Assembly: GCA_041677685.1 (NCBI GenBank)
Contig: JBAYPN010000015.1
Location: 1 to 18,539 of the forward strand
DNA from: an archaeon
GTDB taxonomy: Archaea; Iainarchaeota; Iainarchaeia; Iainarchaeales; CSSED10-239
Direction of reading: 5' to 3'
DNA length: 18,539 nucleotides
In this document: positions 14 to 18,539 of the stretch, in pieces
How the letters are laid out: each line of letters begins with the position of its first letter
How positions within the stretch are numbered: position 1 is the stretch's first letter
Notes under the pieces: model-generated
Databases searched by the model: none
What the model was told of the DNA's origin: nothing
What the model saw: only the letters and a program-made list of their open reading frames with translations
Position numbers and translations under genes: made by a program

Positions 14-66
14 TTAATATAATATTTAAAAAGTTAATATAATATTTAAAAAGTTAATATAATATT
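14..66. repeat. 20-bp tandem repeat of almost pure A/T, about 2.6 copies (unit TTAATATAATATTTAAAAAG)
   Basis: Perfect copies at 14-33 and 34-53, with a partial copy at 54-66. It lies in a ~208-bp stretch of very high A+T content upstream of the first gene. A further 13-bp direct repeat, ATAATATAGAATA, occurs at 76-88 and 105-117. Confidence 0.8.
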
Positions 67-208
67 ATTAATCTAATAATATAGAATAATATCTAACAAT
101 TGTGATAATATAGAATATAATATACAATCTATAATATAATATATAAAATAAAATAATATCTTAAATAAATATCTAAAACAAATATAATATATAAAAAAGT
201 AATAAACT

Positions 209-1201: not shown

Positions 1202-1303
1202 AGTTATTTCTTACTTAAAGTTATGTATTTATAAATGTTTCTAATTATAATATTTCTAAATAATTTATATAAAAACTTTATAAAAAATATGGAATGGTAG
1301 ATT

Positions 1304-2686: not shown

Positions 2687-2699
2687 TTTTTAATTTATA

Positions 2700-2706
2700 A
2701 GGTGAT
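2700..2706 (+). promoter_or_regulatory. Shine-Dalgarno site AGGTGAT for paralogue 2
   Basis: AGGTGAT is complementary to the conserved 16S rRNA 3' end (AUCACCU). It lies 3 nt upstream of the ATG at 2710, inside a 23-nt intergenic spacer. Confidence 0.7.
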
Positions 2707-2709
2707 TTT

Positions 2710-4077
2710 ATGAAAAATAAATTTTTAAAGATTTTTATAATATTTATATTCTTTTTTATAAGTGTTGGGGTGGTAAGTTCATTTAGTATTCCATCAGTTG
2801 TAAAAATTACAGGTAGTATTGATTTAACAGAAACTAATGGAACTTATGTTGTTTATGCTTTTGTTAATGATCATTTAATAGGTTATAAATATTATTCAAA
2901 TTATGATGATTTAAGATTAGGACTTTATAATGGTTTTTTCTCAGACCCATTTGATATTTCTAAAACTGGAGATGGTGAGAGTTATAGTTTTGTTTTAAGT
3001 GTTAGTAGAACATATATAGTAAATGGAATAGACTATACTGTTATTAATAATTCAGACCCTATTCTTTTTCCAAACCCAAATTATAGTAATTTAAGTTATA
3101 CAGTAGACATTGTTGATAGTTCAATTACTACCCCTAAGATTAAAGATAATGCAGTTGGAGAAAATGACTTGGGAGCTAATTCAATTTGGACTGTTAGTAT
3201 TCCTGAAAATGTAGTAACTACAAATAAGATTAAGAATGATTCAATTAAAGGTACAGATTTTTCATTAGAGGCAATTGTTTCTGAAAAAGTAGCTGACAAC
3301 ACTATTGAAAAACCAAAGTTAAAAATAGAACCATCTAATCCTAACACAACCTATTCAGAATTCTTAGCAAAAACAGAAAATGATAATTTTTCTTGGGTTT
3401 CTAATGTTTCAGAAGATTATGAATTTGCTGTTGGGCAAGGTTTGTTTAAGGCTTTTGTTACAATGTCAAATACGACCTATGTAGGTATTGGTAATGAAAA
3501 AGTTGAAACAGGTATGTTTGAAGATAATTCTGTTACAACTAACAAAATAAAAGACTTAGCAGTAACAAATCCTAAACTTTCAGACAACTCAGTTTCAAGA
3601 CAAAAAATTATGGCTGATGCAATTGTTACTAGTAAGATTCAAAATCAAGCTGTAACAAATTCAAAAATTAAAAATAAAAACATAAATCAAGATAAATTAA
3701 ATAACACAGAATACTATTCACTATTAAAGTGTGGTCAAACATATTATAGTGTTTCTGGTAATATGTATGATTTAGAATTTGATAATTGTAATATTAATTA
3801 TAATAATTCAGAAAATAAATATTTAGTAACATATAATAATATTTTAATAAAGAAAGATGCTTCTACTAAATATTATTTTTCAAATAAAGATTTTACAAAA
3901 AATATAAATTTAATAAAAGGTTATTGTAACTCTAGAGGTGGAAGTCTAAACTCATACACTACAGAAAGTGGATCTTTTAATAGCCTTTTAGGTTTGACAG
4001 AAAAAGGAGAATTGCAAGTTGATTCTGGTACTTCTAAAATTAAAAATATAGTTTGTGAATTTTATTATATTGAATGA
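2710..4077 (+). CDS. secreted fibre-like repeat protein, paralogue 2 (455 aa), function unknown
   Basis: Signal peptide (MKNKFLKIFIIFIFFFISVGVVSS). Shared N-terminal motifs IPSVVKITGSI, GFFSD and NPNYSNL. 11-residue repeats start at residue 136 (nt 3115), the same residue number as in paralogue 1, for example SITTPKIKDNA, SVTTNKIKDLA and AVTNSKIKNKN. Four-Cys C-terminal domain. Confidence 0.8.
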   Translation: MKNKFLKIFIIFIFFFISVGVVSSFSIPSVVKITGSIDLTETNGTYVVYAFVNDHLIGYKYYSNYDDLRLGLYNGFFSDPFDISKTGDGESYSFVLSVSRTYIVNGIDYTVINNSDPILFPNPNYSNLSYTVDIVDSSITTPKIKDNAVGENDLGANSIWTVSIPENVVTTNKIKNDSIKGTDFSLEAIVSEKVADNTIEKPKLKIEPSNPNTTYSEFLAKTENDNFSWVSNVSEDYEFAVGQGLFKAFVTMSNTTYVGIGNEKVETGMFEDNSVTTNKIKDLAVTNPKLSDNSVSRQKIMADAIVTSKIQNQAVTNSKIKNKNINQDKLNNTEYYSLLKCGQTYYSVSGNMYDLEFDNCNINYNNSENKYLVTYNNILIKKDASTKYYFSNKDFTKNINLIKGYCNSRGGSLNSYTTESGSFNSLLGLTEKGELQVDSGTSKIKNIVCEFYYIE

Positions 4078-4088
4078 TATTGTATATT

Positions 4089-4095
4089 AGGTGAT
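4089..4095 (+). promoter_or_regulatory. Shine-Dalgarno site AGGTGAT for paralogue 3
   Basis: The same AGGTGAT heptamer as at 2700-2706. It lies 5 nt upstream of the ATG at 4101, and the intergenic spacer is again exactly 23 nt. Confidence 0.7.
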
Positions 4096-4100
4096 TGTAA

Positions 4101-5477
4101 ATGATAAAAAAAATATTTGGAATTTTTGTAATAATAATTAGTTTTCTTTTAATTATAAATGTTGGATATGCACACGATGTTCCTTTTGTAATTAAGATAA
4201 CTGGAGATTTAAATTTAAGTGATACCTCTCAAGATATTGGAATAAAAGCATATGTTAATGTTATATCAAACGATAATTTAGTTTTAGATAAAACAAATTT
4301 ACCATATGCAAACTTTAACTCCGAAATAGCCACTGGTTTTTTTACAGATCCAATTTCTAAAGATTTGACAGGAACTGATAAGACTTTCCCATTAAGAATT
4401 ATAGTTGAAGTAAACAATAGTAGTTTTCCTAAAACAATTTCAATTTCAAATCCAAATTATAGTAGTTTAGAGTATTATGCAAACAATTTAGTGGTTAATT
4501 CTCTAAATAATAATAAATTTGCAGATAAATCAATCACAACAAATAAGCTAAAGGATAACAGTGTTTCAGAAAGTAAAATTAATTATGTTTATGGAGAAAA
4601 TTTAGTAGATAATGCAGTTACTGGTTCAAAGATTAAAAATAATACTTTAACTAAAAGTAATTTTGCAAATGAAGGTCTAAATTATGTTGATTTTAAAATA
4701 TTGAATAATAATTCTGGAATTAATTATTTGTCAAAGAATCCAGATAATTCTGCTTTTGTTGCAGTTGGCACAATTGCAGCTATTGATTTAATGGAAGCTG
4801 GTGCTGGTATATTAAAAACAAACCCTTCTGAAATGAATACTTTTTCAATCAAGGATCTAGGAATTGTAAATAGTATGATTGGTAACAATGAAATTACAAC
4901 TAATAAATTGAATGATGGGGCAATAATTACTTCTAAGCTTGCAGACGACTTTATAACAACAAATAAATTTGCTGAGGGTGCTGTGGAAAATGCAGACTTG
5001 GACATAATGGAAACTGTGGACTTTGCAAACAACTCTTTGACTGTTAAGAAGTTGTCTGAGGAGGCATTGACTGCACTCTTATGTAATTCTGTGGATGTTT
5101 TTGTTTATAGGAGTGGACCAAATACTTCTTTAGGAGTTGCAAGAACAAATCATGATTGTGATGTTAGTTTTAATGGTTCTGAAATAAATGTAACATATGG
5201 AAATGTAAGATTTGAGAATGTGACTGAATTGGATGGTGGACCTTTTAAACTAAATGGAAATGAGATTTCAGGAAAAGCATTTTGTGCATTGCATAATGGT
5301 AAATTTTTAAGTGGTGATGAAGTTAGCGATTCTGTTTCCAATATTGCTTGGGTGCAATCTGATAATCTATGGGCAAGAGGAACAACTACAGAGAAATATT
5401 ATTCAGATATAACTTGTGTTTTTGATGGTGTTACTAAATATTCATCAGGATCATCAGGAAATTCAGGGGTAGAATAA
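4101..5477 (+). CDS. secreted fibre-like repeat protein, paralogue 3 (458 aa), function unknown
   Basis: Signal peptide (MIKKIFGIFVIIISFLLIINVGYA/HD). Shared motifs VPFVIKITGDL, GFFTD and NPNYSSL. 11-residue repeats include SITTNKLKDNS, EITTNKLNDGA and FITTNKFAEGA. Four-Cys C-terminal domain followed by a Ser/Gly-rich tail. Confidence 0.8.
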   Translation: MIKKIFGIFVIIISFLLIINVGYAHDVPFVIKITGDLNLSDTSQDIGIKAYVNVISNDNLVLDKTNLPYANFNSEIATGFFTDPISKDLTGTDKTFPLRIIVEVNNSSFPKTISISNPNYSSLEYYANNLVVNSLNNNKFADKSITTNKLKDNSVSESKINYVYGENLVDNAVTGSKIKNNTLTKSNFANEGLNYVDFKILNNNSGINYLSKNPDNSAFVAVGTIAAIDLMEAGAGILKTNPSEMNTFSIKDLGIVNSMIGNNEITTNKLNDGAIITSKLADDFITTNKFAEGAVENADLDIMETVDFANNSLTVKKLSEEALTALLCNSVDVFVYRSGPNTSLGVARTNHDCDVSFNGSEINVTYGNVRFENVTELDGGPFKLNGNEISGKAFCALHNGKFLSGDEVSDSVSNIAWVQSDNLWARGTTTEKYYSDITCVFDGVTKYSSGSSGNSGVE

Positions 5478-5490
5478 ATTTATCCTACCT

Positions 5491-5510
5491 CTTCTTTTTA
5501 TATTTTTTTA
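5491..5510 (+). terminator. oligo-T tracts, candidate archaeal-type terminator of the three-gene operon
   Basis: CTTCTTTTTATATTTTTTTA has a T5 run and a T7 run within 35 nt of the stop at 5477. No stable hairpin is evident, which fits intrinsic archaeal termination at T tracts. Confidence 0.4.
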
Positions 5511-5553
5511 ATTTCTAAAAAACAAATAATTATTTAAACTGTTTACTCAATAG

Positions 5554-5561
5554 TTATATAT
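5554..5561 (+). promoter_or_regulatory. TATA-box-like TTATATAT upstream of the HtpX-like gene
   Basis: The box centre is about 26 nt upstream of the ATG at 5583. That spacing fits a leaderless or near-leaderless archaeal transcript. The AT-rich background makes chance matches likely. Confidence 0.3.
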
Positions 5562-5582
5562 TGACTATAAAGATGTGTGATT

Positions 5583-6482
5583 ATGAGTTCTAAAAGTTTT
5601 TATTCTGAGATACGAAGAAATAATATAAAAACCTATTTTTTAATGTTTATCTTCTTTATCTTAATCTTGGTTATTGGATATTGTTTAAAATTAATATTCT
5701 CATTTGCAGGTTTTGGAATCTTGTTTTTTGCTGGACTCTTTGCAATTATCTTTGCGTTAATAGGTTACTATTCAGGAGACAAAATTGTACTCTCAACCTC
5801 AAAAGCAAAACCAATTGATGAAAAAAATCCAAAACATAAATACTTGGATAATCTAGTTGAGGGATTAGCAATTGCTGCTGGAATCCCAAAACCAAAAGTA
5901 TATGTTATTAATGATGTTTCTCCAAATGCTTTTGCAACTGGAAGAGATCCAAAGCATTCTTCTGTAGCTGTAACTTCTGGTCTTTTAGAGCTTTTAAACA
6001 GAGAGGAGCTAGAAGGAGTAATTGCCCACGAACTTTCACATATAAAAAACAGAGACATAAAAGTTATGATGATTGTTACTGTTCTTTTTGGACTAATAGT
6101 CATGGTGTCAGATATTGCTTTTAGGTCTTTGATATTTGGTGGAGCTTCAGGAGGTGGTAACGATAACAAAGGAGGGATCTTGGTTTTAGTTATAGCCATA
6201 GCTTTTGTAATCTTCTCTCCAATAATTGCCCTACTTATACAGATGTCAATTTCAAGAAAAAGAGAATATTTGGCAGACGCTTCTGGAGCAGAGTTAACAA
6301 GGTACCCAAAAGGTCTTGCAAGTGCTTTAAGAAAGATCTCCTCAATAGACAGACCAGTGGCTTCAGCCTCTAAAGGCTCAGCACATCTATATATTTCTAA
6401 TCCCTTAAAAAGAAAAAAAAGAAATCTATTTTCAACACATCCTCCAATTGAGGAAAGGATTAGAAGATTAGAGGCAATGTAA
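5583..6482 (+). CDS. htpX: HtpX-like M48 family zinc metalloprotease (integral membrane)
   Basis: HEXXH zinc site HELSH at nt 6027-6041 within GVIAHELSHIKNRD. The downstream motif is REYLADASGAELT (third ligand Glu). There are two N-terminal and two central hydrophobic helices, and a C-terminal HPPIEERIRRLE typical of HtpX. The track ORF opens at GTG 5577. I prefer ATG 5583 because of the TATA spacing, but the start is uncertain by 6 nt. Confidence 0.85.
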   Translation: MSSKSFYSEIRRNNIKTYFLMFIFFILILVIGYCLKLIFSFAGFGILFFAGLFAIIFALIGYYSGDKIVLSTSKAKPIDEKNPKHKYLDNLVEGLAIAAGIPKPKVYVINDVSPNAFATGRDPKHSSVAVTSGLLELLNREELEGVIAHELSHIKNRDIKVMMIVTVLFGLIVMVSDIAFRSLIFGGASGGGNDNKGGILVLVIAIAFVIFSPIIALLIQMSISRKREYLADASGAELTRYPKGLASALRKISSIDRPVASASKGSAHLYISNPLKRKKRNLFSTHPPIEERIRRLEAM

Positions 6483-6594
6483 CTTCTTTTCTTATTCTTT
6501 ATTTTTCTTAGTTATTAATTTTCAATCCCAATTTTATTTCTTTTTTTAAATTTCCATTTTTCTTTTCTTCTTTAAGCCTTCATCCTTTAATCCT

Positions 6595-6688
6595 ATTCTT
6601 TCTTATATATTAATAAATTGTTTGCTAGAAATATCTTTTTTTACCCACACAGAAAAAGATTCTTTCTTATATATTAATAAATTGTTTG
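6595..6688 (+). repeat. perfect 30-bp direct repeat (6595-6624 and 6659-6688) flanking a hairpin
   Basis: ATTCTTTCTTATATATTAATAAATTGTTTG occurs twice, 64 bp apart start to start. Each copy contains TTATATAT (6603-6610 and 6667-6674). Between the copies, ATCTTTTT (6633-6640) pairs with AAAAAGAT (6653-6660) around a 12-nt loop. Confidence 0.85.
6667..6674 (+). promoter_or_regulatory. TATA-box-like TTATATAT proximal to the NurA-like gene
   Basis: The box centre is about 30 nt upstream of ATG 6701, inside the second copy of the 30-bp repeat. An identical box sits at 6603-6610 in the first copy. Confidence 0.3.
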
Positions 6689-6700
6689 TGGTTTAATATA

Positions 6701-7780
6701 ATGATTATGGACAACTTACAAAATATTGTTAATCTAATGGTTAACAACTATGAAAAGAACCAATTAACAATTAAATACTTGAAAAAGAACAACTTCAAAG
6801 AAATTAATAATCCATACAACAACTTAGAAAAAATAATTAACAAAATTGAAATTATAAAAGACCAAAATAGTTCCTTTATTGGTGTTGATTCTGGTTTTGT
6901 AAACAAACAATTTAATTTTGCAAACATTACCATAATTAAGGAAGTTGGAGTAGTCTTCAATTACAGAAATTCAAAACTAGAAAAGGCAACCTATTTTCCA
7001 AAAGCCTATAATCTTGCAAAACCATACATCACAACTTCTGCTTTAGAACTTGAAGAGATTGTTTGGAACACCTCAATTTTGAGATTAGAAAAAGAGATTG
7101 GGCTTTCTTTTGAAATAATTGAAAAAAGTGATTCTAATTTTTGTTTAATTGATGGTTCAATTGTTCCACAATATATTTCTAAGCCTTCAAAGGAATCTAA
7201 ATTACTTTCTTCTTATAATTCCTTAATTAATAATTTTATTAATATCTATAATCTTTGTAAAGAAAAAAAAGTCTACTTGGTTGGGTGTATTGAAGACTCA
7301 AGAGCAAACAGATTTTTTAAATTCTTAGAAGAAAAGATAATAAAAGAGAAGCTAACAAATGAACTGTATGATCCTTTCTTAGTCTTCTCTCTGCTCTCTA
7401 AAAATGAAAGAACTTGTGTTATTAAATATTCAGACAACTTTAAAGAACATCCAATCTTAAAGGACTTTCCAAAAGAGGTCTCTGACAACCTTTATATTCT
7501 TTATATTAAACTTTCAGAAGATGACTTTCCTTTAAGACTAGAATTTATTTACTTTGAGAGTTTTGGCTTGTCCTTAAAAGAATACACAGAACAGATTGTC
7601 TCAAACATCTCCTCAGTTTCTAATCTAAACAAAAGATATGTTTATCCTTCACCCCTAATAGAAGCAGATTTGAGAAGCAGACTAAGGCTTGATGAAATTG
7701 ATTCAATAACAAACACAATTTTAGAAAAAACAAGAAAATTTGGGTTTAGGGTGCCAAGAAGAGAATCTAGAATCTTTTAA
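6701..7780 (+). CDS. nurA: NurA-like 5'-3' nuclease (DNA end-resection family)
   Basis: The NurA-type motif order is present: IGVDSG (first acidic motif), RLEKE, CLIDGSIV (Asp at 7151-7153), IEDSRANRF and a C-terminal YPSPLIEADLRSRL. The track ORF starts at TTG 6686, which lies inside the upstream repeat. ATG 6701 or 6707 is more plausible. The family call comes from motif memory only. Confidence 0.6.
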   Translation: MIMDNLQNIVNLMVNNYEKNQLTIKYLKKNNFKEINNPYNNLEKIINKIEIIKDQNSSFIGVDSGFVNKQFNFANITIIKEVGVVFNYRNSKLEKATYFPKAYNLAKPYITTSALELEEIVWNTSILRLEKEIGLSFEIIEKSDSNFCLIDGSIVPQYISKPSKESKLLSSYNSLINNFINIYNLCKEKKVYLVGCIEDSRANRFFKFLEEKIIKEKLTNELYDPFLVFSLLSKNERTCVIKYSDNFKEHPILKDFPKEVSDNLYILYIKLSEDDFPLRLEFIYFESFGLSLKEYTEQIVSNISSVSNLNKRYVYPSPLIEADLRSRLRLDEIDSITNTILEKTRKFGFRVPRRESRIF

Positions 7781-7911
7781 GGAAAAAAAGTTAATAATCC
7801 AAACTCATTAGTTTATTAAATGGTTTTGTGTATACTATATAATATTTTAATAAAGAAAGCTTGATCTTTTTAGCCATCAAAAAGCGGTTAGAAAATCAAA
7901 CAAAAAAACCT

Positions 7912-7925
7912 ATTTCTTAAGAAAT
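7912..7925. promoter_or_regulatory. perfect 14-bp palindrome ATTTCTTAAGAAAT, candidate operator
   Basis: The sequence is exactly self-complementary. It lies 50 bp upstream of the ATG of the winged-helix gene, just upstream of an AT-rich TATA-like stretch (TTTTAATA, 7942-7949). Confidence 0.35.
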
Positions 7926-7974
7926 TTTAAACCGATGCTCTTTTAATACTTTCATGACATAATCATGATATATT

Positions 7975-8436
7975 ATGACAGAAAATGACATTAACACAAA
8001 ACAGAAATTTCTAGAGTTGTTACTCAAAGAAGACACAAAAGAACTGGGTTTGAGTGATCTTATTCAAATCCAAGAAAAGTTTAATGATCCATTAATACTT
8101 TCAGTAATCATTCATCAATTAATAGAAGAAAGAAAAAAGACAAACAACATACTTTTAGAACTAAGAGAGAAGTATGATAGCTTACAGTTTTTAGTTAAAA
8201 ACAACATAAAGACTAAGCAAGAACAAAACACAGATGTTTACAACATATTACCAGAGATAGATGACAAGATAATTTCTTTTATTAAAGTTAAACAAAAAGT
8301 TGACGCTGAGATGGTCCAAAATGAATTTAATTATAAGGGATCAAATGCAGCATCACAGAGATTAAACAAACTAGTAAACAATGGATACTTAAGGAAAGTG
8401 CAAGCAGGAAGAAAGGTATACTTTATTGTTAGGTAA
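7975..8436 (+). CDS. small winged helix-turn-helix DNA-binding protein (153 aa)
   Basis: The N-terminal half is charged and helical. The C-terminal ~60 aa have a classic wHTH pattern: DDKIISFIKVKQKVDAEMVQNEFNYKGSNAASQRLNKLVNNGYLRKVQAGRKVYFIV. This reads as helix, recognition helix and then a beta-hairpin wing containing GRK. Confidence 0.6.
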   Translation: MTENDINTKQKFLELLLKEDTKELGLSDLIQIQEKFNDPLILSVIIHQLIEERKKTNNILLELREKYDSLQFLVKNNIKTKQEQNTDVYNILPEIDDKIISFIKVKQKVDAEMVQNEFNYKGSNAASQRLNKLVNNGYLRKVQAGRKVYFIVR

Positions 8437-8829
8437 AAGTATTTTTTACTTTTGCAAAATAATTAACCCCCTTTAATTAAAAAACCCCTTTTTTAATTAC
8501 ATATCTTTCTTTTCTTGCTTTTCCCTTTTCTGCCTTTTTTAAAACTTATAAAAATTAGAAGGATTGACTGATATGTTTTTCCTTCTTCTTTTCTGCCCTT
8601 ATTTTTCTTATCACAAATCTTCTTTTTTAAAAATCCTTTAATTAAAAATTTTTTAATTCATAGTCTTTCATTTTCTTTTAAAATCAGTTTCCAATTTTCC
8701 TTTTTCTATCCCTTTTCTGTAATCCCCACTCTTTTTTCAAACAACCTATCTTTGTTTACAAAAATTAATATATTTAAATCTTTTGTTCTATAATTCTAAT
8801 ATACAATTTAGGTATGGGGGCAGAAAAAA
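8437..8829 (+). other. 393-bp non-coding pyrimidine-rich (T/C on + strand) region with short repeated motifs
   Basis: No ORF of 60 aa or more occurs in any frame. CCCTTTTCTG-type motifs occur at 8523-8534, 8588-8598 and 8710-8719. CCTTTAATTAAAAA followed by TTTTTTAATT occurs at 8470-8498 and 8635-8658. A T6 tract at 8443-8448 lies just after the stop codon. Confidence 0.6.
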
Positions 8830-9165
8830 ATGGACTTTCAAAAAATAGGGGCTTATGCTTTTTTATTTGGAATTTTAATTTCAATTATTTTTGGATTGAT
8901 TTACTCTACAGGAAATCCAAGTTGGGTATCAGTAGCACTAATAATCTTAGGTTTAATAATTGGATTATTAAACATCTCTGACAGAAATGTATCTTTATTC
9001 TTAATTGCAGCAATAGCATTTATTGCAACAAGCAATTCTATAAATGCATTACCTGTAATTGGGGATCTTTTAAGAGGAATTTTAATAAATTTAGTTCACT
9101 TTGTAGGACCAGCTGCAATGATTGTTTCAATCGTTGCAATCATTAGGGTTGCAAATACTAAATAA
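8830..9165 (+). CDS. small polytopic membrane protein (111 aa, 3-4 predicted TM helices), function unknown
   Basis: ATG preceded by GGGGG (8816-8820). Almost the entire protein is made of hydrophobic helices: AYAFLFGILISIIFGLIY, VSVALIILGLIIGLL, LFLIAAIAFIA and FVGPAAMIVSIVAII. Confidence 0.65.
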   Translation: MDFQKIGAYAFLFGILISIIFGLIYSTGNPSWVSVALIILGLIIGLLNISDRNVSLFLIAAIAFIATSNSINALPVIGDLLRGILINLVHFVGPAAMIVSIVAIIRVANTK

Positions 9166-9210
9166 TTTCCTTTCCCTTTTTTTCTTTTTTTTAAATTGAT
9201 TCTTTTTTAA
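9166..9210 (+). terminator. multiple oligo-T tracts after the small membrane protein gene
   Basis: T7 (9177-9183), T8 (9185-9192) and T6 (9203-9208) lie directly downstream of the stop at 9165. Confidence 0.4.
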
Positions 9211-9360
9211 AGACTTTCCATATATAGATATATTTATATATAATTTGATGTAAATTATAATTATAAATTAAGAATAATATTTAAATCTAAAAACAACAAA
9301 ACAGAAAGAATAAAGAACAACAAAAACACAGCATTAAACATTTGTTTGGAAAGTATAGAT

Positions 9361-12300
9361 ATGGGTAAGGAAGAAAAAAAAAGAAATAATTTTTTCTCAA
9401 AAATATACAGTAGCTTAGAAAAAGGTTATTATAATTTTTCAAATTGGTTAACAAAGAAAGGAATCAACCTAAATGCTTTAAATAAAAAATTAGAAAATAA
9501 AGGAGTTCCTCCATTTATCTTGTTTGGTTCAATCTTACTAATTATAATCTTACTAGTATTATTCTTATTTGTGTTTAATGTTAATGCAACTTCTGAAATC
9601 AAATTTAGTATTCAAGGTTCTGACAACAAGTCAATCAATGATGCAAGCCTTGTGATTAAAGATGTTAAAGGTAAAAAGGTATTTTCAGGAACAGTAAACA
9701 ACAACGATGTTATTAAGATAAATCTAAAGCCAGGAAAAACATATTCCTTTTCTGCAATGAAAGATGGTTATAAGCCTTTTAACAAAGACTTTTTAATTGA
9801 ATCAAAAGAAGACCTAATTGTAATTGTTTTTAATGAAATTATTCAGAACGGAATCTTACAAATTAAAATAATAGATTCTCAAGACAAAAGAATTGTTGCA
9901 AATGCTCTAGTTACTGTTAGCTACTTGCTTGATGGGAAAAGAACAGAAATCTCAGGTAAACCAGATAAAAATAATTTCTATGATGTTAACTTACAAGTCC
10001 CAATCAACAAGGACATAGAGCTAATTGTCTCTGCTGACAAATACCAAGACCATAAAGAAACAATAAGATTAAATTCTGAAGCAGAAACTAGAAACATAGA
10101 GCTTGTTTTTAATAGTGGGCTTTTAGAAGGAAAAAGCAGAATTACTTTTGTGGTTAATGATGAGGCTGGAGAGTTGTTGAATGATTCTATAGTTGAAGTC
10201 TATAATCTATCTGATCAACTAATAGCTCAGAACAGAACTGTTGATGGAAGAGCAATTATTGATGTTGATTCTGGCTCAACAATCAACTACAAGGTAAGTA
10301 AAGAAGAATACAGGACCTTTGTAAGTGATCCTTTAATCTCTTTTAAAATATTAAACAAAGAAGAGATAATAAACATTACCCTAAAGAAAGGAGGAAGCTC
10401 TTTGAAAGTAAAAATACTTGATTCAATTTCCTTTAATCTTTTACAAGATGCTTCTGTCTCCATTTATGATCAAAACCAATCATTGTTAGACAACAAGACA
10501 ACTGACCTTTCAGGAACTATCAACTTCCAAGGCTTAGAAACAAACTCAGAGTTTATTGTTGTTGGTTGTAAGCAAAATTATTTTTGTGAAAGTAAAAAAG
10601 TTTCTTTAATTAATTTCTCAGAACTAGAGTTAAGGTTAGAAGAAATAAACATAAATAATAGTGCAATTTTAGAAGTCTTTGTTGTTGACTTTAAAAATCT
10701 ACCTGTAGATAATGCAAAAATTAAAATCTTTGAAATAAAAGATGAAATTGAATATCCTTATAATGATGAACCATTTGTTCTAGATGCAACTGGTGGACTT
10801 TCCTTACCTTTAAAGGTTGGTTCTAAATATCTTGTGTATGCTTATGTTGGAGATGTTGAAGACTACCAGTATATAACCATTAGTAACAAACTACAAAATA
10901 GAATTATTTTTACAATTGAGCAATCTTCAAAAATCTTAACCTTAGACTTACTAGATAGCTTTGGACAGAAAATAAGTTCAGGACATGTATCAATTTCTGC
11001 AAAGGACGGAACAATTTTATATGACTCAGACATCAACTCTGCATTAGATGATATTATGTTTCGTACAGATGGTTATTCTGACTTTATATTAAATTACACA
11101 GATTCAAATGGTGTAACAACAACTGGGACACTATCAGCAAATGATGCAGACTCAGCAAACCATTTAGGCTTTAAACTTAACCCTAAAGTAGTTGGTGATT
11201 TTCCAATCATTGACTTTGTAGGCATACAGAATAGTAGAGGGGAAAAAATAAATTATATTTCTCCAAACAATGATTATTATTTAATATTTGATGTAATTGT
11301 TCCACAAGGCACAACCAAAGCAGGAGTGCATATTAGAGCTGGAGAGGACACTGTTACTGATTCTGAAAATCAAAGTTATGGAATCACAGGCTTTATGGCA
11401 GACACAACAAACTTCACCTACTCAACAACCTACAATCCTTTACCTGAACCTGGTTCACAATCAATAGATGTCTTAAACCAAGGAAATGCAGGAAACATTA
11501 ACAAATGGATTGAGCTAAAATGGGATAATAAGCTTGGAGTTACAAACAAGCAAATTAAAATTAAAGTAAAAGCAATTGACTCTTCTACATTTAAACCAAA
11601 ATTTAAATACAGGGCATGGGTTGAAAGAGACTTTGAGGTTTACAGAGATCCACAAGACTCAACCCTACAAAAGAAATACTCAACAAACAACAGACAACAA
11701 CTTTATGCAGACACAAAAGAAATAACTGTAGAGTTATTTGATGTTCCTGCAGAATGTAAAGATGATATTTGTGTGTCTTATAGCTTTATTGACTCAGATG
11801 GAATTAGTTATTCTAAAGAGGACTTTTTTGCATTAAAGGGAGATGTGTTTGCTTTAGAAGCTACACTTTACAGTAATAAAAATAGAGTAATTAAATTAAA
11901 CACAAAGACATCAACTACCCAACCAGCAATCTCATTTATAAGTGCTGATGAAGGAACTTTAGCTTTTCCAACAAACTTTAATCTAGGCACAATTTCAGAA
12001 CTTGAACTAAACAAAGATGGAATTAATTTAAGGGCTGGAGAGCGAAACAAAGTCTACACTTACTTTGTCTCAAAAGCAATTGGTGTAAGTTATATTGATT
12101 CAAAATTTATTTTAGAAGATGACTCTGCTCTTGAACAAAGATTAAGCTTTGAGGTTCTTGACAAAAGATACTTAAGAATATTATTTAATCCTGACCTAAT
12201 ATTACCATTTGGTTCTAAACTAGAGTTAGAGGTCTTTGATTCAGCAAATGGAAACCCAATTGAAAATGCTTTTATAAAGATTGAAGATGAGCAAGGGCAA

Positions 12301-15300
12301 TTTATAAGACTAATAAAAGGAGATAGACTAAATGGAAGGGCAGGAAAATATGTAATCAATTCAGATTTTGTTGTAAACAAATTAAATTTAACAATCTCTG
12401 CTTATGGTTATGTGCCATTTACCAAACAACTTTTGATTGCTGATGACTCTGTTCTTGTTGCTCCAAAGGAAGTGTTGATTAACTTAGGGGTTGATCAAAT
12501 TTCTCAAACTGTAAATTTCAATTTAGAAAATATTTCTGACACCTCAGTAACTGACATCTATGTTGGAGAACCTGTTTGGGTAAATGGGGCTGACACCTTG
12601 ACTTTGGATGTTAGAGGACCACCAAGTGTTACTAAGAAAAATAAAATAAACTTTCAAGCAATTGCAACAGTTTCAAAAGATGCATTATTTGATTCTGCAT
12701 ATGCAAATGTTCCAATCTATGGGCTTGTGGGGAATAGGCAAGTTGCAACTGTTGTTTCTATAAGGATAAACAGAGGGTTGATAGTTGATGACTGTTTGGT
12801 AATTGCACCAAAAAAGATTGACACTTTTGTTGGGCTAAACACCAATTTCAATTATGATGATTATTATGGGGCTGGAGACTACCAAGACTTTATAGGCTCA
12901 CAAAATTTAAATTATACACCTAATCAAAGCTATAACACAGGATATGGTGGGTCTATTCCAGGTTCAAGTAATTCCAATTCCAACTACAATTATTATAATG
13001 ATGGCTTTAACAGATATATTAACAACTTCATAACCTCTAGAGCAGGAGCCTCTGAAAACACAGTAGTTTTTACTATTCAGAATAAATGTGAACAAATAGT
13101 TTTCTTAAACCCAAAGTTAGTTCCAATCTCTTCAAATTCAAACAATGATCTTGAAATTATATTAAATCAGTTGACTATACTTCCAGGTGAAGAAAAGCTA
13201 TATGATGTGCTTATTAAAAACACAAGTGATAGAGAACAAATTAAAAAATATAAATTTAATATTTTGTGGGAAAATTCTTTTTATAATCTTTCACCTACAG
13301 AACTTAATGTTGACTTGATAGATGTAAGTAAAGCTTTGTGGGTTGCACCTACACAATTACAGATCTATTTATCACAGACAACCGAACAACAACCAGCAAT
13401 AACAAGCACAAGAATTATGATTAAAAATATTGGAAATGTTCCAATAACTGACATACAGATAAGCACTTACCCACAGATCAAGTCTGCAAATATTGGAGTA
13501 ACTGAATACCCAAGGGAGATAAAGATTTTAGAGCCTGGTAAACGAGTTCCTGTTGATCTAAAGTTTACAGTTAACATTAATAGAGCAACTTTAGAAGACA
13601 TGTACTTTGTTGTTACTGGAAAGGCAGCAGGTGTGAAAAATCCAGTCTTTGCAAAAACAACTGCCTACTTTTTAATTTCTTCTCCTAATTGTCTAAAGAT
13701 TAGTCCTAAAAATCTAGACTTTACTTTAAATTTAGGAGAGAAAAAAGCAAGAAATATTTCTATTAATAACCAATGTGCAGAGCCTGTAGCAATTGTTGGA
13801 ATTGATAAAAGACTTGGTAGTTACCAACAAGCCTTTGGGAATAACGCTGTGTCTTTAGTTCCAACATCTGGGATGGGGGTAATTCCACCAAACGGTTTTG
13901 CAGACTTTTCATTTTCAATAACTGCAAATGCATATGGTGGACAACCAAAGGTTCCTGTAACAATTATTGGACAAGCTTTAAATTCAGGTAATTATGTAAC
14001 TTCAGAGAGCACTTTAGTTTCTTTAAATATTCTATCTAAAGATCAAGATGAACAAAATGATTTCTTACAATCTTTTGAAGTAACTCTTCCTGTTTGTAAT
14101 AACCCTTCTGAGTCTAAGACTGTGTACATGCCTTTAATCTCTGTTAATGACTGTACAGGTAGGGATGGTTATTGTGATTCTTATGGAGCTTCTGAATTGA
14201 TACTATCAAAGATTGATGAGATGTATGGAAAAATACAGACAGTTGCTGCACACTCCCAAAATCAATTATTAAAAACTGGTTGTTCTGTTCAAAAGGCTTT
14301 ACAAGGATATTGTCCAATCTCTGATCTTGGGGGGGACTTAGGTCCTGTTGAGTTTGATGTTTACCTACAGAACGATTCTTTATCTTATGACCTAGTCAAA
14401 GAGATCTTAAGCAAATCAGATTATAAATTTAAAAAATATTTTGTTGATGTTGCAGTTCCAAACAGTAACCTTACAGGGTATGGTACCTATCAATATGGGG
14501 GGAAAATAAACATCCCTAATCTTTCTGGTTGTGGGAAATATAAATTAGAGTTGAATGCCTTTATTGGAGCTAACCAAGACAGCATCTTTCCAAACAGAGT
14601 TAACTTCTTAGTAAATTTAGTTTCTTATAAACAAACTGAACAATGTGAAAAAAGTATTGAAAATTATTTAAATTATTTGCCGTGGGACATAGACCTTACA
14701 AAGAATAAAAGTAAAGGCACCTGGTTAACTGTGTTTTCAGGTGATGAGAATGTAGCAAAAGAGATTTTAAGTGGAGTTAGTAAATTTGAAAAGAATGATA
14801 ATAGATATGTGAAGGGTAACATTCCAAGCACTAAACAAAATCATCTTAACATCAGAGTTGGAAAGATTAATGAAGATCAAGAGGCTTTAGCAAAAATATA
14901 CTTTAATGATCTACAAAAAAGTCCTTCCTCTAAACCTGAACAACTAAATATTGTAATAAATAATAGATATGCAATTTCTGGAACTTCACAATTGCCTGAA
15001 AAAGTATTGACTGATGCTAAGATCTTAATCAATAATTTTATAAGTAAGACTGATTATACAGAAAATTGTATTTCAGAAAATCTAGATTATATGTTAATCT
15101 TAAAAGTTATAAAAGCAGGGAGATTAGAATTTGATCCTAAAGAAAAGACAAGTGTTGTTTTAGTTGATAAAGTTTGTACTGATCTAAACATTGTTTCTGA
15201 TATTTTAGAAAATGTTGTTTTAAACCTAAAAGCACCAAATGACCTAAACACTTGGTTTGAATATAGAAATAAAAAATATGATTCTCTTGGTTTAGATTTA

Positions 15301-17367
15301 AAACAAGGAGTGTCAAATGATTTTAATGTATGTTATATTCCACAAAATGATCAGATCTATAATCTGGTTGGAAAAGACATAATTGTAAGTGCAAGAAGTA
15401 TTTATTCTACAAGTCTTAAAGCAGGAAATGTTGGACAAAGAAAGTCTGAGGCAACCATCCATTTGTCAAGTTGCGGAGTTACACCTGTTGATGTTTTAGA
15501 GATTGTAAGTAACAAGGTGGTTGCTGCTAACAAGGATGGTGGTTCTGCACAAGACACCTATTATGCTTTGGTTGATTGGAACAGATCATATAACCCTACA
15601 GACACAGAGACTTTGTGTGACACAATAAATAAGTATATTGAGAAAAATCCAAGCTCTAGTTTATTTTTTGACTATAAGTTAGAAAATTGTAATACTGGAA
15701 AGACTAAGGCTGAAAAGGAAGCTAAAAACAATAAAGCAATAAATAATGCTTTGACTAAATATTTTGTACCATGTATGGCAACCTGTACAGCTTGTACTGC
15801 TGGGACAAATGCTATTTTTGGGATGGTGCCTGTTTTGGGGCAGATCAAGTTGTTGTCAGGGGTAGTTGTTGATTGTGGAATTTTTGCTTGCGGTTTACCA
15901 TCAGCAAGCATATATTTGAATACTGTTACTGGAAAGGGATTTTCAGATTTTATTGATGGTTGGTTAACAAAGTTATTTATTGGAGAACAAAATAAACAAA
16001 CAGGCACAGAGATTCATCTTGCTAGAAGTGTTGTTGGGGGAATTGAGGGGATGAGTACCTGGATTGCAGAAGTCTTTAATGGAACAAATCTTGAGAGTCC
16101 TGGGGCAACAACACTTGGTATTGGGACTGCACAGGCACTTTCAGGGTCAAGGATGGTAAAAGCAACTCCACTTGGTTTTGAGAAGGGAGCTTCTTCTGTC
16201 TTAGAAGGAGTTTCAGGGACTTTAACTCCTGTAGGGGCAGTGGTTCCAACACCTCCTGTAACTCCACCTCCTGTAACTCCTCCGATAGTTACAAATGTTC
16301 CACATACAGTTGATGCAAGACTTGGAAAATATGTAAGTTACATGAACGGAACAAGCACTTCCTATTCCTTTGTTCCACATGATCCTGCGATGGCTGCAAG
16401 AATTTTGCCAAGAGTAACAAATACTGCTGGAGCATACATACCTAGTCAAATTGAGAGTTTGACAGCAAGTGAGTTAGATGACTTGGTTTCACTTATAAGG
16501 AATGGGACTTTTTCAAAAGCAAGGCCTAATCTTTTTGCATTAAATCCAAGCTCTTTGGCTAGTCAAGTAGAAACATTTGCAATTAAAAAATATCCAACAC
16601 ATCCCTTTACCTTTGGAGTTGGGGCAACAGCTACAACACCTCCTGCAGGAACAGCAGGAACACCTGGGGGAGCTGGGGCAACAGCCTTAGAAGGAATCTC
16701 ACAAGTAGAGTATGATGATCTGTTAAATACAATAGAGACCCAAAAGGCAGAAATTAAAGGTAATCTAGATAAAATTACTGCTGAGAAAGCAAAACTTACA
16801 GATCTACAAGATGGTTCTAAAAAATGGTACCAGAAACATAAGAAAGCAACAGGAACTAAAAAAGCACTTACAAGACTTGAGGTAAATGCAAAGCCACTAG
16901 AAGACGCTATGAAACAATTAGATGATCTAGAAAGAGCATTAAAGCCAGGGGGAACAAGATTAACTCCAACTGTTGTAGATGCTGCAGGAAACCCAAAAAT
17001 CCCAATTAATGATGCTATTAAAAATCAGATTACTGATTTAGAAAGTTCTGTGGTAAGAAAAGCAAAAGTAAAGTTTAGTGCAAAATTAGCAAATTTTGGG
17101 GCAGGAATGTTTAGGGCTCTTGCTTGTGGAATTTTAGGGAATGTTGCTGGAAGTAATGTTTTAACAGATACTGGAATTACAGGTTTAGATCATTCTGTGT
17201 TAATCAACGATAATGTTAATTTTAATAGAAACACATTATATAAGGTTGACATTATAGACAACCAAGACTCACAAGATCCAAATAACAAAAGTAGATATGA
17301 TTTAAAGATAGAAAGCTATGTTGGTTCAACATCTAATAATCAGAGGATAGATAATTGTTCTAAATAG
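9361..17367 (+). CDS. giant membrane-anchored surface protein (2,668 aa from ATG 9361, or 2,673 aa from TTG 9346)
   Basis: One uninterrupted ORF of 8 kb. The features in order are:
- a basic N-terminus followed by one TM helix (PPFILFGSILLIIILLVLFLFVF, nt ~9508-9576)
- about six tandem ~85-aa beta-sandwich repeats resembling CarboxypepD_reg/PEGA domains (nt ~9595-11100), with one more at ~12170-12440
- Ig-like modules with a PapD/ASH/CARDB-like pattern (~12440-13980)
- an N/Y/G/S low-complexity segment (12838-13030)
- a Cys-containing distal region
- a compositionally distinct C-terminal module (15772-17367)
No enzymatic motif was recognised. Confidence 0.85.
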   Translation: MGKEEKKRNNFFSKIYSSLEKGYYNFSNWLTKKGINLNALNKKLENKGVPPFILFGSILLIIILLVLFLFVFNVNATSEIKFSIQGSDNKSINDASLVIKDVKGKKVFSGTVNNNDVIKINLKPGKTYSFSAMKDGYKPFNKDFLIESKEDLIVIVFNEIIQNGILQIKIIDSQDKRIVANALVTVSYLLDGKRTEISGKPDKNNFYDVNLQVPINKDIELIVSADKYQDHKETIRLNSEAETRNIELVFNSGLLEGKSRITFVVNDEAGELLNDSIVEVYNLSDQLIAQNRTVDGRAIIDVDSGSTINYKVSKEEYRTFVSDPLISFKILNKEEIINITLKKGGSSLKVKILDSISFNLLQDASVSIYDQNQSLLDNKTTDLSGTINFQGLETNSEFIVVGCKQNYFCESKKVSLINFSELELRLEEININNSAILEVFVVDFKNLPVDNAKIKIFEIKDEIEYPYNDEPFVLDATGGLSLPLKVGSKYLVYAYVGDVEDYQYITISNKLQNRIIFTIEQSSKILTLDLLDSFGQKISSGHVSISAKDGTILYDSDINSALDDIMFRTDGYSDFILNYTDSNGVTTTGTLSANDADSANHLGFKLNPKVVGDFPIIDFVGIQNSRGEKINYISPNNDYYLIFDVIVPQGTTKAGVHIRAGEDTVTDSENQSYGITGFMADTTNFTYSTTYNPLPEPGSQSIDVLNQGNAGNINKWIELKWDNKLGVTNKQIKIKVKAIDSSTFKPKFKYRAWVERDFEVYRDPQDSTLQKKYSTNNRQQLYADTKEITVELFDVPAECKDDICVSYSFIDSDGISYSKEDFFALKGDVFALEATLYSNKNRVIKLNTKTSTTQPAISFISADEGTLAFPTNFNLGTISELELNKDGINLRAGERNKVYTYFVSKAIGVSYIDSKFILEDDSALEQRLSFEVLDKRYLRILFNPDLILPFGSKLELEVFDSANGNPIENAFIKIEDEQGQFIRLIKGDRLNGRAGKYVINSDFVVNKLNLTISAYGYVPFTKQLLIADDSVLVAPKEVLINLGVDQISQTVNFNLENISDTSVTDIYVGEPVWVNGADTLTLDVRGPPSVTKKNKINFQAIATVSKDALFDSAYANVPIYGLVGNRQVATVVSIRINRGLIVDDCLVIAPKKIDTFVGLNTNFNYDDYYGAGDYQDFIGSQNLNYTPNQSYNTGYGGSIPGSSNSNSNYNYYNDGFNRYINNFITSRAGASENTVVFTIQNKCEQIVFLNPKLVPISSNSNNDLEIILNQLTILPGEEKLYDVLIKNTSDREQIKKYKFNILWENSFYNLSPTELNVDLIDVSKALWVAPTQLQIYLSQTTEQQPAITSTRIMIKNIGNVPITDIQISTYPQIKSANIGVTEYPREIKILEPGKRVPVDLKFTVNINRATLEDMYFVVTGKAAGVKNPVFAKTTAYFLISSPNCLKISPKNLDFTLNLGEKKARNISINNQCAEPVAIVGIDKRLGSYQQAFGNNAVSLVPTSGMGVIPPNGFADFSFSITANAYGGQPKVPVTIIGQALNSGNYVTSESTLVSLNILSKDQDEQNDFLQSFEVTLPVCNNPSESKTVYMPLISVNDCTGRDGYCDSYGASELILSKIDEMYGKIQTVAAHSQNQLLKTGCSVQKALQGYCPISDLGGDLGPVEFDVYLQNDSLSYDLVKEILSKSDYKFKKYFVDVAVPNSNLTGYGTYQYGGKINIPNLSGCGKYKLELNAFIGANQDSIFPNRVNFLVNLVSYKQTEQCEKSIENYLNYLPWDIDLTKNKSKGTWLTVFSGDENVAKEILSGVSKFEKNDNRYVKGNIPSTKQNHLNIRVGKINEDQEALAKIYFNDLQKSPSSKPEQLNIVINNRYAISGTSQLPEKVLTDAKILINNFISKTDYTENCISENLDYMLILKVIKAGRLEFDPKEKTSVVLVDKVCTDLNIVSDILENVVLNLKAPNDLNTWFEYRNKKYDSLGLDLKQGVSNDFNVCYIPQNDQIYNLVGKDIIVSARSIYSTSLKAGNVGQRKSEATIHLSSCGVTPVDVLEIVSNKVVAANKDGGSAQDTYYALVDWNRSYNPTDTETLCDTINKYIEKNPSSSLFFDYKLENCNTGKTKAEKEAKNNKAINNALTKYFVPCMATCTACTAGTNAIFGMVPVLGQIKLLSGVVVDCGIFACGLPSASIYLNTVTGKGFSDFIDGWLTKLFIGEQNKQTGTEIHLARSVVGGIEGMSTWIAEVFNGTNLESPGATTLGIGTAQALSGSRMVKATPLGFEKGASSVLEGVSGTLTPVGAVVPTPPVTPPPVTPPIVTNVPHTVDARLGKYVSYMNGTSTSYSFVPHDPAMAARILPRVTNTAGAYIPSQIESLTASELDDLVSLIRNGTFSKARPNLFALNPSSLASQVETFAIKKYPTHPFTFGVGATATTPPAGTAGTPGGAGATALEGISQVEYDDLLNTIETQKAEIKGNLDKITAEKAKLTDLQDGSKKWYQKHKKATGTKKALTRLEVNAKPLEDAMKQLDDLERALKPGGTRLTPTVVDAAGNPKIPINDAIKNQITDLESSVVRKAKVKFSAKLANFGAGMFRALACGILGNVAGSNVLTDTGITGLDHSVLINDNVNFNRNTLYKVDIIDNQDSQDPNNKSRYDLKIESYVGSTSNNQRIDNCSK

Positions 17368-17421
17368 TTTTTTTTAATTTTTCTTTTTAGATTTTAATTT
17401 TTCTTTTTAGATTTTAATTTT
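17368..17421 (+). terminator. T-rich 20-bp tandem repeat (about 2.5 copies) immediately after the giant gene, candidate terminator
   Basis: A T8 run starts right after the TAG stop. The unit (A/T)TTTTAATTTTTCTTTTTAG occurs at 17371-17390 and 17391-17410, with a partial copy at 17411-17421. Each unit carries T4-T5 runs. Confidence 0.45.
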
Positions 17422-17577
17422 ATTATAAAGTATTTTTCTTATTTTGGTGTACATGCTTATGTTTGTTTTCAAGATATAAAAAAAATAAGGAAGCTAGGCA
17501 TAAAACTTCAACCATCTCTATTTATAAACTTTTTCATAATATATATTATTAATTTTATTAAAAATTATATATTTTTT

Positions 17578-17582
17578 AGGAG
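17578..17582 (+). promoter_or_regulatory. Shine-Dalgarno site AGGAG for the pilin-like gene
   Basis: AGGAG lies 8 nt upstream of the ATG at 17591. Confidence 0.6.
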
Positions 17583-17590
17583 TATTTAAT

Positions 17591-18539
17591 ATGTTTGAAT
17601 TATTTAAGAATAGTAAGGGTCAGATTTCTGTTGAAGTTTTGACAATTGTTGGAATATTAGTTATTGGTGGAATTATTTTTGGAGTGTTTTATTTATCTCA
17701 GATTAATAGAAGTATAGATGATGCTGATCAATTAGACACTAGTATAGGCGATCAATTTGGAGAGGTTTTGACACCTGTGGGAATGGGTAATATTCTTCCA
17801 ACTTGTTCTGATAATATACAGAATGGACTAGAGCAAGGTGTAGATTGTGGAGGTCCTTGTCCACCGTGTGTAATTTCTGGTGATGATTGTGGGGATGGTT
17901 ATTGTGATGTTCTTGGGGGAGAATGTGATACTTGTCCTCAAGATTGTATAAATAATGAGTGTGATCCAATTCCAACAACTTTTCTTTTAGAAGTAGATCC
18001 TGAGAGTTACACAGGATTTGTTGGACAGACTTATTATGGTCCTGAAGTTACTATTATTTTAAATCAATCTTCTAGTGTTGATTTGTCATTAAAGGTTGAA
18101 AAAAATAATGCTTTAAATAATTTAATAATTACAGATGAATGTACTTATGATGGTATCCAAATTAATGGTAATACTTTTATTGGAAATTACACTTCTGATG
18201 CTATTTTCTTTAAAAATATTGTATGTTCTCAAGAAGACACTTATTATTTCACATTTACTGGTGATGATGGTGAATATCAGATTATAAGACCATTCGAATA
18301 CACAACAACCTCAGATATCACTCCTCCAGGAAACAACAATTATGCTCTATGTTCAACTTCTGCTCTTTCAGGAGGCTCTGATACTTTAAGAGTTTGTTTA
18401 AATGATTATACAACTACTTTAGACTTAGGTGGTTCTGACTATTTAACAATCTATGTTAACCAACCAGATGCTTTAGAAAATAATTGTAAGCTTACTTCAA
18501 AGGGTAGCAAGATTTGTGTGTATGTTGGTAATAGTTGGA
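17591..18539 (+). CDS. archaeal type IV pilin-like protein with class III signal peptide and a Cys-rich module (3'-truncated by the window end)
   Basis: This ORF is not in the supplied track because it has no stop inside the window. I translated it by hand and it stays open for 316 codons from ATG 17591. The N-terminus is MFELFKNSKG/QISVEVLTIVGILVIGGIIFGVF. That matches the archaeal prepilin (class III, DUF361-type) signature: a short basic leader, KG, then Q-x-S-x-E and a hydrophobic helix. A 10-Cys module follows (nt 17804-17962), and then a beta-rich region. Confidence 0.8.
   Translation, partial: MFELFKNSKGQISVEVLTIVGILVIGGIIFGVFYLSQINRSIDDADQLDTSIGDQFGEVLTPVGMGNILPTCSDNIQNGLEQGVDCGGPCPPCVISGDDCGDGYCDVLGGECDTCPQDCINNECDPIPTTFLLEVDPESYTGFVGQTYYGPEVTIILNQSSSVDLSLKVEKNNALNNLIITDECTYDGIQINGNTFIGNYTSDAIFFKNIVCSQEDTYYFTFTGDDGEYQIIRPFEYTTTSDITPPGNNNYALCSTSALSGGSDTLRVCLNDYTTTLDLGGSDYLTIYVNQPDALENNCKLTSKGSKICVYVGNSW

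Follow-up and report, generated by a model that had tools for sequence, protein, structure and literature searches.

A predicted class III signal protein with a block-wise variable immunoglobulin-like domain, encoded beside an M6 metalloprotease gene in a putative DPANN archaeon

The DNA analysed here, an 18,539-nucleotide (nt) stretch of contig JBAYPN010000015.1 that we refer to as the window, is very AT-rich (GC ~27%) and ends within a gene, here called the target, whose product combines a predicted class III signal peptide with a cysteine-rich region, an immunoglobulin (Ig)-like domain and a conserved C-terminal module (Table 1). A first-pass annotation, made from the letters of the window alone, had read it as a type IV pilin-like protein that would form one surface apparatus with the giant protein encoded directly upstream. 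The window also encodes NurA, an M48 (HtpX-type) peptidase and a β-CASP-type hydrolase; distant members of the target family adjoin archaeal ribosomal-protein operons, and the named records with family members are uncultured archaea, "Ca. ainarchaeum" and Nanoarchaeota or Woesearchaeota metagenome-assembled genomes. We infer that the source is a DPANN-type archaeon.

Table 1. Features of the target gene and its product, of its flanks, and of related loci; positions without a locus name are those of the window.
Feature	Position	Strand	Basis or remark
Target coding sequence, codons 1-316 of 317	17591..18539	+	last AAA (Lys) codon and TAA lie beyond the window
Predicted class III signal peptide, residues 1-10 (MFELFKNSKG), cleavage after G10	17591..17620	+	PMC3875500 criteria, PF04021 (residues 8-34), hhalign
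Mature hydrophobic helix, residues 11-35 (QISVEVLTIVGILVIGGIIFGVFYL), continuing to ~residue 46	17621..17728	+	hydropathy, AlphaFold, conservation
Cys-rich region, residues 72-124, 10 Cys	17804..17962	+	Cys positions; low pLDDT; no Pfam match
Ig-like β-sandwich, residues 130-240	17978..18310	+	AlphaFold pLDDT 81-96 over residues 131-240
Variable block 1, residues 121-184	17951..18142	+	48% identity to P0001, other blocks 100%
Variable block 2, residues 188-250	18152..18340	+	45% identity between P0001 and P0002
Conserved C-terminal module, residues 251-316 (YALC...CLN...VNQPD...C...CVYVG)	18341..18539	+	family conservation; low-to-moderate pLDDT
Target upstream/promoter region with AGGAG	17503..17590	+	100% identical in L002
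T-rich region after the giant-gene stop: T8, five T5 runs, tandem 21-nt duplication	17368..17440	+	terminator-like
Giant surface protein, 2668 aa	9361..17367	+	context only
Peptidase_M6, source organism	L016, 54 nt downstream of target		PF05547, 40.9 bits
Peptidase_M6	L004, downstream of family member		PF05547, precomputed match
Peptidase_M6	L010, downstream of family member		PF05547, 26.8 bits
Peptidase_M6	L009, upstream of family member		PF05547, 29.4 bits
Peptidase_M6	L003, upstream of family member		PF05547, 21.5 bits
M6-like genes	L002, upstream, plus an M6-like gene start (MKEAF...) downstream		PF05547, 14.6 bits (upstream gene)
A24 prepilin peptidase, 247 aa, polytopic	L018 1842-2582		PF06847 (Arc_PepC_II), 50.4 bits (cut-off 29.9)
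FlaI/VirB11-family (FlaI/GspE2-like) ATPase homologue, 952 aa	L018 2656-5511		~4.3-7.1 kb upstream of window position 1

Translation of the target starts at ATG 17591, with an AGGAG ribosome-binding site at 17578-17582 and a spacer of 8 nt, as read in the first-pass annotation, and the protein beginning MFELFKNSKGQISVEVLTIVGILVIGGIIFGVFYLSQ reproduces the hand translation given there exactly. Since an in-frame TAA at 17537 is followed by no start codon before 17591 and the next methionine is residue 65, no usable start other than 17591 would preserve the N-terminus. The six-frame list omits the open reading frame (ORF) because no stop occurs inside the window, as had been recognised; the accompanying description of the protein as more than 300 aa and still open was misleading, as only one further codon precedes the stop. 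Protein P0260 consists of the window's 316 residues exactly plus one Lys, and its locus, L016, which is 99.97% identical at the DNA level to window 7592-18539, extends the contig by the last codon and a TAA (...TGG AAA TAA). The counterpart in L014 finishes GNSWK-TAA; in L002, GNSWR is followed at once by TAG, past which the contig runs on for 68 nt. Because all these versions stop at this point, the gene has 317 codons; the full protein is 317 aa long, or 307 aa after the predicted cleavage. P0001-P0005 all finish ...VYVGNSW[KR]. Both the window contig and the L001 contig break one codon short of the target stop, L001 ending at the window's last base.

EppA-type (DUF361) pilins carry a leader of 5-13 aa that ends in Gly and is followed by Gln at +1 and Glu at +5 (PMC3875500). 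The target N-terminus agrees with this description: its 10-residue leader is short, positively charged (K6, K9) and Gly-ended (G10; the class allows Gly or Ala), Q11 and E15 occupy positions +1 and +5 and are invariant in 19 of 19 family members, and residues 11-35 include the ~20-aa hydrophobic stretch typical of such signals (mean Kyte-Doolittle hydropathy 2.2-2.4), with E15 as the sole charge. An EppA/DUF361 class III signal with predicted cleavage between G10 and Q11, as first proposed, is therefore supported, as far as sequence can tell. Relatives that share just 25-35% overall identity all retain Q11, S13, E15, L17 and G26, and K9, G10, I12, V20, G21, G27 and F30 are nearly invariant among them. 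The whole of the Pfam model PF04021, positions 1-27, aligns to target residues 8-34 (13.9 bits, E = 0.053); the model matches 18 of the 19 family members, with a best E of 0.006.

A more specific match comes from a related genome, in which L004 encodes a pilin-sized protein of 122 aa (19584-19952) that passes PF04021 at 29.3 bits. Aligned to it with hhalign, the N-terminal profile of the target family gave 97.6% probability (E = 2.7e-12), and the controls remained at 0.4% (transmembrane anchor of the giant protein), 0.6% (Sec signal of the M6 protease) and 0.2% (N-terminus of a 585-aa protein encoded downstream, see below). The same N-terminal module heads proteins of 122-128 aa as well as of 386-971 aa in related genomes. 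A scan for the N-terminal signature across the window and ~250 kb of related loci returned family members only, and two pattern scans found it in no other window ORF; a broader pattern scan over ~41 kb of the source organism gave three more pilin-like N-termini. Judged from these comparisons, the N-terminal motif is more than chance. A sequence search of the Protein Data Bank (PDB) with the N-terminal profile gave no matches, which is uninformative for so short a hydrophobic segment, and a search of the same database with the whole-family profile gave insignificant matches only.

Beyond the N-terminus the protein is modular. An AlphaFold model built on a 23-sequence alignment contains a helix at residues 14-46 (block-mean predicted local distance difference test score, pLDDT, 38-69), a low-confidence region at 47-126 and, after it, the confidently predicted Ig-like β-sandwich. 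All 16 cysteines lie in the exported part, and the first cysteine unit (CSDNIQNGLEQGVDCGGPCPPC; window 17804-17872, residues 72-93) is a copy of a repeat of the form 'C..N..E.G.DCGG.C..C'. This repeat, written more fully C-x-D-x3-N-x2-E-x-G-[IV]-DCGG-x-C-x2-C, is spread in tandem arrays over thousands of bacterial and archaeal surface proteins, with 3119 matches at E <= 1e-3 and up to 39 copies per protein; it occurs in type IX secretion system (T9SS) proteins, in Myxococcota and in DPANN archaea, examples being P0007, P0012, P0121 and P0122, and no Pfam model matches here. Pfam and NCBIfam searches detected no solute-binding domain in the target, and its C-terminus (...VYVGNSWK) carries no sorting signal.

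The target family, defined by an exhaustive profile search together with indexed searches, comprises proteins of ~300-410 aa (P0170, P0188, P0243, P0213, P0214, P0237 and P0256-P0258) and a ~540-aa subfamily. Common to its members are the N-terminus, a conserved β-domain, Cys-rich inserts that are interchangeable, and a C-terminal module (YALC...CVN...VNQPD...C...G), which ends 0-4 residues past the last conserved Gly; the same C-terminal module closes a 732-aa family member in L010. Two observations concern particular members. In L006, L007 and L008 (~2570-4645), the class III protein of the ~560-aa subfamily has as its next neighbour a 691-aa protein that carries a pretoxin-HINT domain; such a neighbour is typical of polymorphic toxin systems. 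L013 (CAYNMU010000050.1), deposited as 'uncultured Eubacteriales bacterium', contains two archaeal-type class III proteins with the same match coordinates as archaeal L012, and this deposit is probably a binning or labelling error.

Versions of the target differ in sharply bounded blocks. Over window 17503-18539, comparison with L002, L014 and L015 reveals a promoter, signal, first Cys unit and C-terminal module that are 100% identical, and between them blocks of 45-50% protein identity; the DNA of the window and of L014, for example, is 100% identical outside ~200 nt (17925-18135) that match at ~62%. The blocks are combined differently in different metagenomes: P0001 and P0002 share block 1 (94%) and differ in block 2 (45%), while P0003 joins the exact residues 1-103 of the window protein (100%) to a body like that of P0004, whose own N-terminus is just 77% identical. 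Breakpoints fall in conserved stretches such as ECTYDG, and the two variable blocks together make up the Ig-like domain. As substitutions in the variable regions affect all four bases and are accompanied by in-frame insertions and deletions of 3 to 12 nt, we attribute the mosaic to homologous recombination between diverged alleles or paralogues. A diversity-generating retroelement was considered and rejected: substitutions are not adenine-specific, indels are present, and the window holds no internal variable-region repeat and, among its ORFs, no reverse transcriptase domain. Searches of the window with blastn and tblastn found no silent or donor cassettes or paralogues. The block swapping points to diversifying pressure on a binding or otherwise exposed surface. 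A further protein, P0005 (from a 740-nt contig; compare L015 1075-1326), joins the N-terminus of the M6-like downstream gene (MKEAFNLKLL...) to a target-type C-terminal module; this could be a genuine recombinant, or else a chimera that arose when the tandem genes were assembled.

A gene for a secreted Peptidase_M6 metalloprotease is a recurrent neighbour of the target family, found in at least five lineages on either side of the family member (Table 1). Because it recurs in this way and lies only 54 nt downstream of the target in the source organism, target and protease are probably used together. Our literature search found no described pairing of a pilin with an M6 protease in DPANN archaea. 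The first-pass annotation had asked whether further pilin-like genes follow. A possible one does, two genes on and ~3 kb past the window end (L016 13476-15233), where a 585-aa protein begins with a bacterial-looking prepilin N-terminus, MFLKNKIIYKNQKG|FNLFTALVSLMLISITLVLIF; the evidence is weak, with a ComGF-like N-terminal match at E = 0.027. We rejected it as a clear pilin, given no Pfam support and no similarity to the N-terminus of the target family, and it may be another pilin-like protein.

Machinery of the type IV filament (TFF) kind is encoded in the same organism, just upstream of the window. The 69-kb locus L018 is 99.99% identical to window 34-11201, window position 1 corresponding to L018 position 9793, and carries a TFF locus whose last pilin gene is ~18 kb, and whose peptidase gene is ~25 kb, away from the target. 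The A24 prepilin peptidase encoded there also aligns to PF01478 over its full length at 18.7 bits and gives a FlaK-like match at E = 8e-10; it carries YQD23 (Asp23) and G87-E-G-D90, and Asp23 and the aspartate of GEGD90 are presumably the two catalytic aspartates of A24 peptidases. The ATPase homologue scores E = 9e-38 in NCBIfam and E = 1.5e-35 against PDB entry 2OAP, and has an N-terminal extension of ~480 aa, of low complexity and rich in Lys, Asn, Asp and Glu, with the same sequence in L019. The locus further contains two T2SSF/FlaJ-like platform proteins (26.7 and 23.0 bits; cut-off 25.2), a DUF192 protein and two small pilins of 179 and 173 aa that start ...KKA|LSPIISVILLILVAA and score 20.5 bits (cut-off 20) and 17.0 bits (under the cut-off) on TIGR02537. 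The class III assignment had been made contingent on the genome encoding a prepilin peptidase and assembly genes; as an A24 peptidase, an ATPase, two platform proteins and two pilins are encoded just upstream of the window, that test fails to refute it. A recent census assigns TFF 'system 1' (Epd type, two platform genes) mainly to methanogens, Thermococcales and DPANN archaea.

Public gene calls in this region read through TGA at window 4075-4077 and at L018 6404-6406 and 7563-7565, giving proteins of 465 instead of 455, 282 instead of 280 and 389 instead of 377 aa, which shows that they were made with a code in which TGA is sense; because long ORFs have no in-frame TGA, the standard code fits and the extensions look like caller artefacts. 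Further upstream in the window, positions 1304-5477 hold a tandem array of three paralogues, secreted proteins of 460, 455 and 458 aa that have Sec-type signals, contain many degenerate 'I-T-T-N-K-I-K-D-x-S-V' repeats and belong to no Pfam or NCBIfam family. They were examined as possible homologues of the conserved 658- and 665-aa neighbours in L009 and L003, an idea dropped at BLASTP E = 0.52.

The giant gene upstream of the target invites the idea, put forward in the first-pass annotation, that both encode parts of one surface apparatus, and the two do adjoin on the same strand in the window, L014 and L016. A second giant paralogue, three genes downstream, also speaks for it and makes the region a surface-protein island; the paralogues (window 9361-17367, 2668 aa; L016 15413-20954, more than 1847 aa visible up to the locus end) bracket the target and M6 genes and have similar N-terminal anchors and CarboxypepD_reg/MG/Big-type domains. 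Against a shared apparatus, the target is set off from the giant gene by a 223-nt spacer, terminator-like T-rich runs and a separate conserved promoter block. Oligo-T tracts terminate transcription in archaea, and the T-rich region, which includes a perfect tandem duplication of a 21-nt unit (AATTTTTCTTTTTAGATTTT, window 17376-17417) right after the giant-gene stop, looks like an archaeal terminator. L002 matches the 88 nt upstream of the target and the first 308 nt of the gene at 100%, the identity starting abruptly at 17503, and there the gene upstream of this identical promoter and 5' part is an M6-like protease gene, not the giant gene. Adjacency to a giant gene is confined to the source population (window, L014, L016), no giant gene adjoins family members in L003, L004, L006 or L009-L012, and the neighbour that does recur is the M6 protease. 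A common apparatus with the giant protein thus no longer follows from the neighbourhood, and we regard it as very improbable.

Taken together, we consider it fairly probable that the target is a modular pilin-like adhesin that an A24 peptidase processes and that TFF machinery displays or helps to display, most plausibly at the filament tip or as a tethered surface protein; the earlier reading as a minor or tip pilin, or a pilin-anchored surface protein, remains the best one available. The steps that we infer in this model are cleavage, filament incorporation, adhesin function and cooperation with the protease. The preprotein would enter the membrane via its N-terminal hydrophobic segment, and an A24 prepilin peptidase, the obvious candidate being encoded ~25 kb upstream, would cut the 10-residue leader after G10. 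The mature Q11...E15 helix would then serve as the assembly interface for the platform proteins and the FlaI-like ATPase, placing the target in or at the tip of a filament, or would at least anchor the protein at the cell surface. The exposed disulfide-rich module, Ig-like β-sandwich and C-terminal module would act as an adhesin or recognition domain, whose β-sandwich halves are exchanged between strains by homologous recombination, and the secreted M6 metalloprotease would probably work together with it.

Several findings weigh against this proposal. As the target and all family members score below the gathering threshold of PF04021 (23.7 bits; 0 of 19 pass), strict membership in that model is not reached, and the profile search suggested in the first-pass annotation returned the full-length alignment without a passing score. 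On TIGR04205, the class III signal model of the archaeosortase D / PIP-CTERM type, the target scores 18.1 bits (cut-off 65). The AlphaFold model has ~80 low-confidence residues between the N-terminal helix and the β-sandwich, and in it no compact pilin head packs against the helix, which makes a position in the filament body doubtful, and Foldseek searches of the PDB and a viral library returned generic Ig/PapD-like β-sandwiches only, with no archaeal pilin or specific adhesin among them. The ATPase lacks the canonical Walker A Gly-Lys (SGNDDS--YT versus GETASGKTT in 2OAP), L019 being identical there; the pilins of the TFF locus have a class III subtype (KA|LSPII...) without detectable similarity to the target N-terminus (hhalign, 4%); and in other genomes, assembly genes are absent from the 10 kb around family members.

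Some of these points would be expected if the N-terminus were simply an uncleaved type II membrane anchor, resembling a class III signal without being processed and independent of any pilus machinery: the sub-threshold PF04021 and TIGR04205 scores, the degenerate P-loop of the nearby ATPase and the different signal subtype of the TFF locus's own pilins all fit. A plain anchor, however, needs neither K/R-G/A at -2/-1 nor Q+1, S+3 and E+5, which are strictly conserved at 25-35% identity, and it would not explain the specific profile match to a class III pilin that passes the threshold, with clean negative controls, or the A24 peptidase in the same organism. This residue conservation, the match and the controls offset the low PF04021 score, and we hold an uncleaved anchor to be distinctly unlikely. 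Greater weight, although still well short of the filament-associated adhesin, goes to a display like that of the bindosome, in which, along the lines suggested for the sugar-binding proteins of Sulfolobus, the target would be cleaved by the A24 peptidase but tethered by its helix and not be a filament subunit, acting as a receptor on the surface or assisting the M6 protease as its partner or scaffold. The long flexible linker and missing pilin head domain favour this, as does the position of the gene, 18-25 kb from the TFF locus and directly beside the protease gene; class III proteins with diverse C-terminal domains are described in the literature as often adjoining functional partners, not TFF clusters. 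No substrate-binding-protein domain was detected in the target, however, and the presence of the same N-terminal module on pilin-sized proteins suggests competence for filament assembly. This alternative also overlaps with the adhesin model, because the bindosome too needs TFF-type base machinery, and we think it unlikely as a separate explanation. It is the long linker, the absent head domain and the P-loop-less ATPase that leave both the tethered-display and the anchor alternatives some weight.

Two features stand out, the shuffling of blocks in the Ig-like domain and the conservation of an M6 protease as partner. Class III proteins with large grafted domains are a likely route of adhesin display in small symbiotic archaea, and almost none has been characterised. 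The target family offers a testable candidate: its cleavage site is defined, the same contig encodes a candidate peptidase, the recognition domain is confidently folded, a protease recurs as partner, and the natural block-swap variants map the likely binding surface. More speculatively, target and protease might form a host-contact module of small episymbiotic archaea, in which an adhesin shown on filaments or on the cell surface would follow variable host surfaces by re-assorting the blocks of its Ig-like recognition domain between strains, the protease would open the protein cell wall of the host and a reduced TFF system would operate with an ATPase that has lost its P-loop; we consider this rather unlikely as a whole.

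Among known systems, the target resembles the EppA-processed DUF361 pilins of Methanococcus maripaludis, including the larger MMP0600, MMP0601 and MMP0709, in its short Gly-ended leader, Q+1, E+5 and hydrophobic helix (PMC3875500). In that set, too, the signal is common to large and small proteins, and the TFF 'system 1' with two platform genes that is associated with these pilins has been reported in DPANN archaea. Unlike the DUF361 pilins, the target falls under the PF04021 cut-off and has no detectable similarity to them past the N-terminus; unlike the Epd pilins as described, it combines a hypervariable Ig-like domain with a Cys-rich module and a C-terminal module that is conserved; and the peptidase found here is FlaK-like with an Arc_PepC_II domain, whereas no dedicated EppA-type enzyme was identified. 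The architecture recalls the modular type IV pilins of bacteria, such as PilB of Streptococcus sanguinis, which add grafted modules to a pilin-type assembly segment; in PilB these modules are predicted to lie at the filament tip and to mediate adhesion (PMC8179133). In contrast to PilB, the target has an archaeal signal type without the G|FTLxE N-methylation motif, its helix leads to the grafted domains with no compact pilin module intervening, and a Cys-rich repeat plus an Ig-like domain take the place of a vWA domain. The sugar-binding proteins of the Sulfolobus bindosome likewise carry a class III N-terminus on large and diverse extracellular domains and are encoded beside their partners and away from the TFF cluster, but the target lacks a solute-binding domain, and its neighbours are the giant protein and the M6 protease, not an ABC (ATP-binding cassette) transporter. 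Pilin variation driven by recombination is known from the Neisseria pilE/pilS system, and in both cases an invariant 5' region, encoding signal and N-terminal helix, precedes variable blocks exchanged by homologous recombination. The archaeal gene differs from pilE/pilS in having no silent cassettes in the window, in a variation that is seen between metagenomic populations, and in a variable part that is an Ig-like domain far from the helix. The target overturns nothing, and extends the known idea of the modular pilin to an uncharacterised archaeal family.

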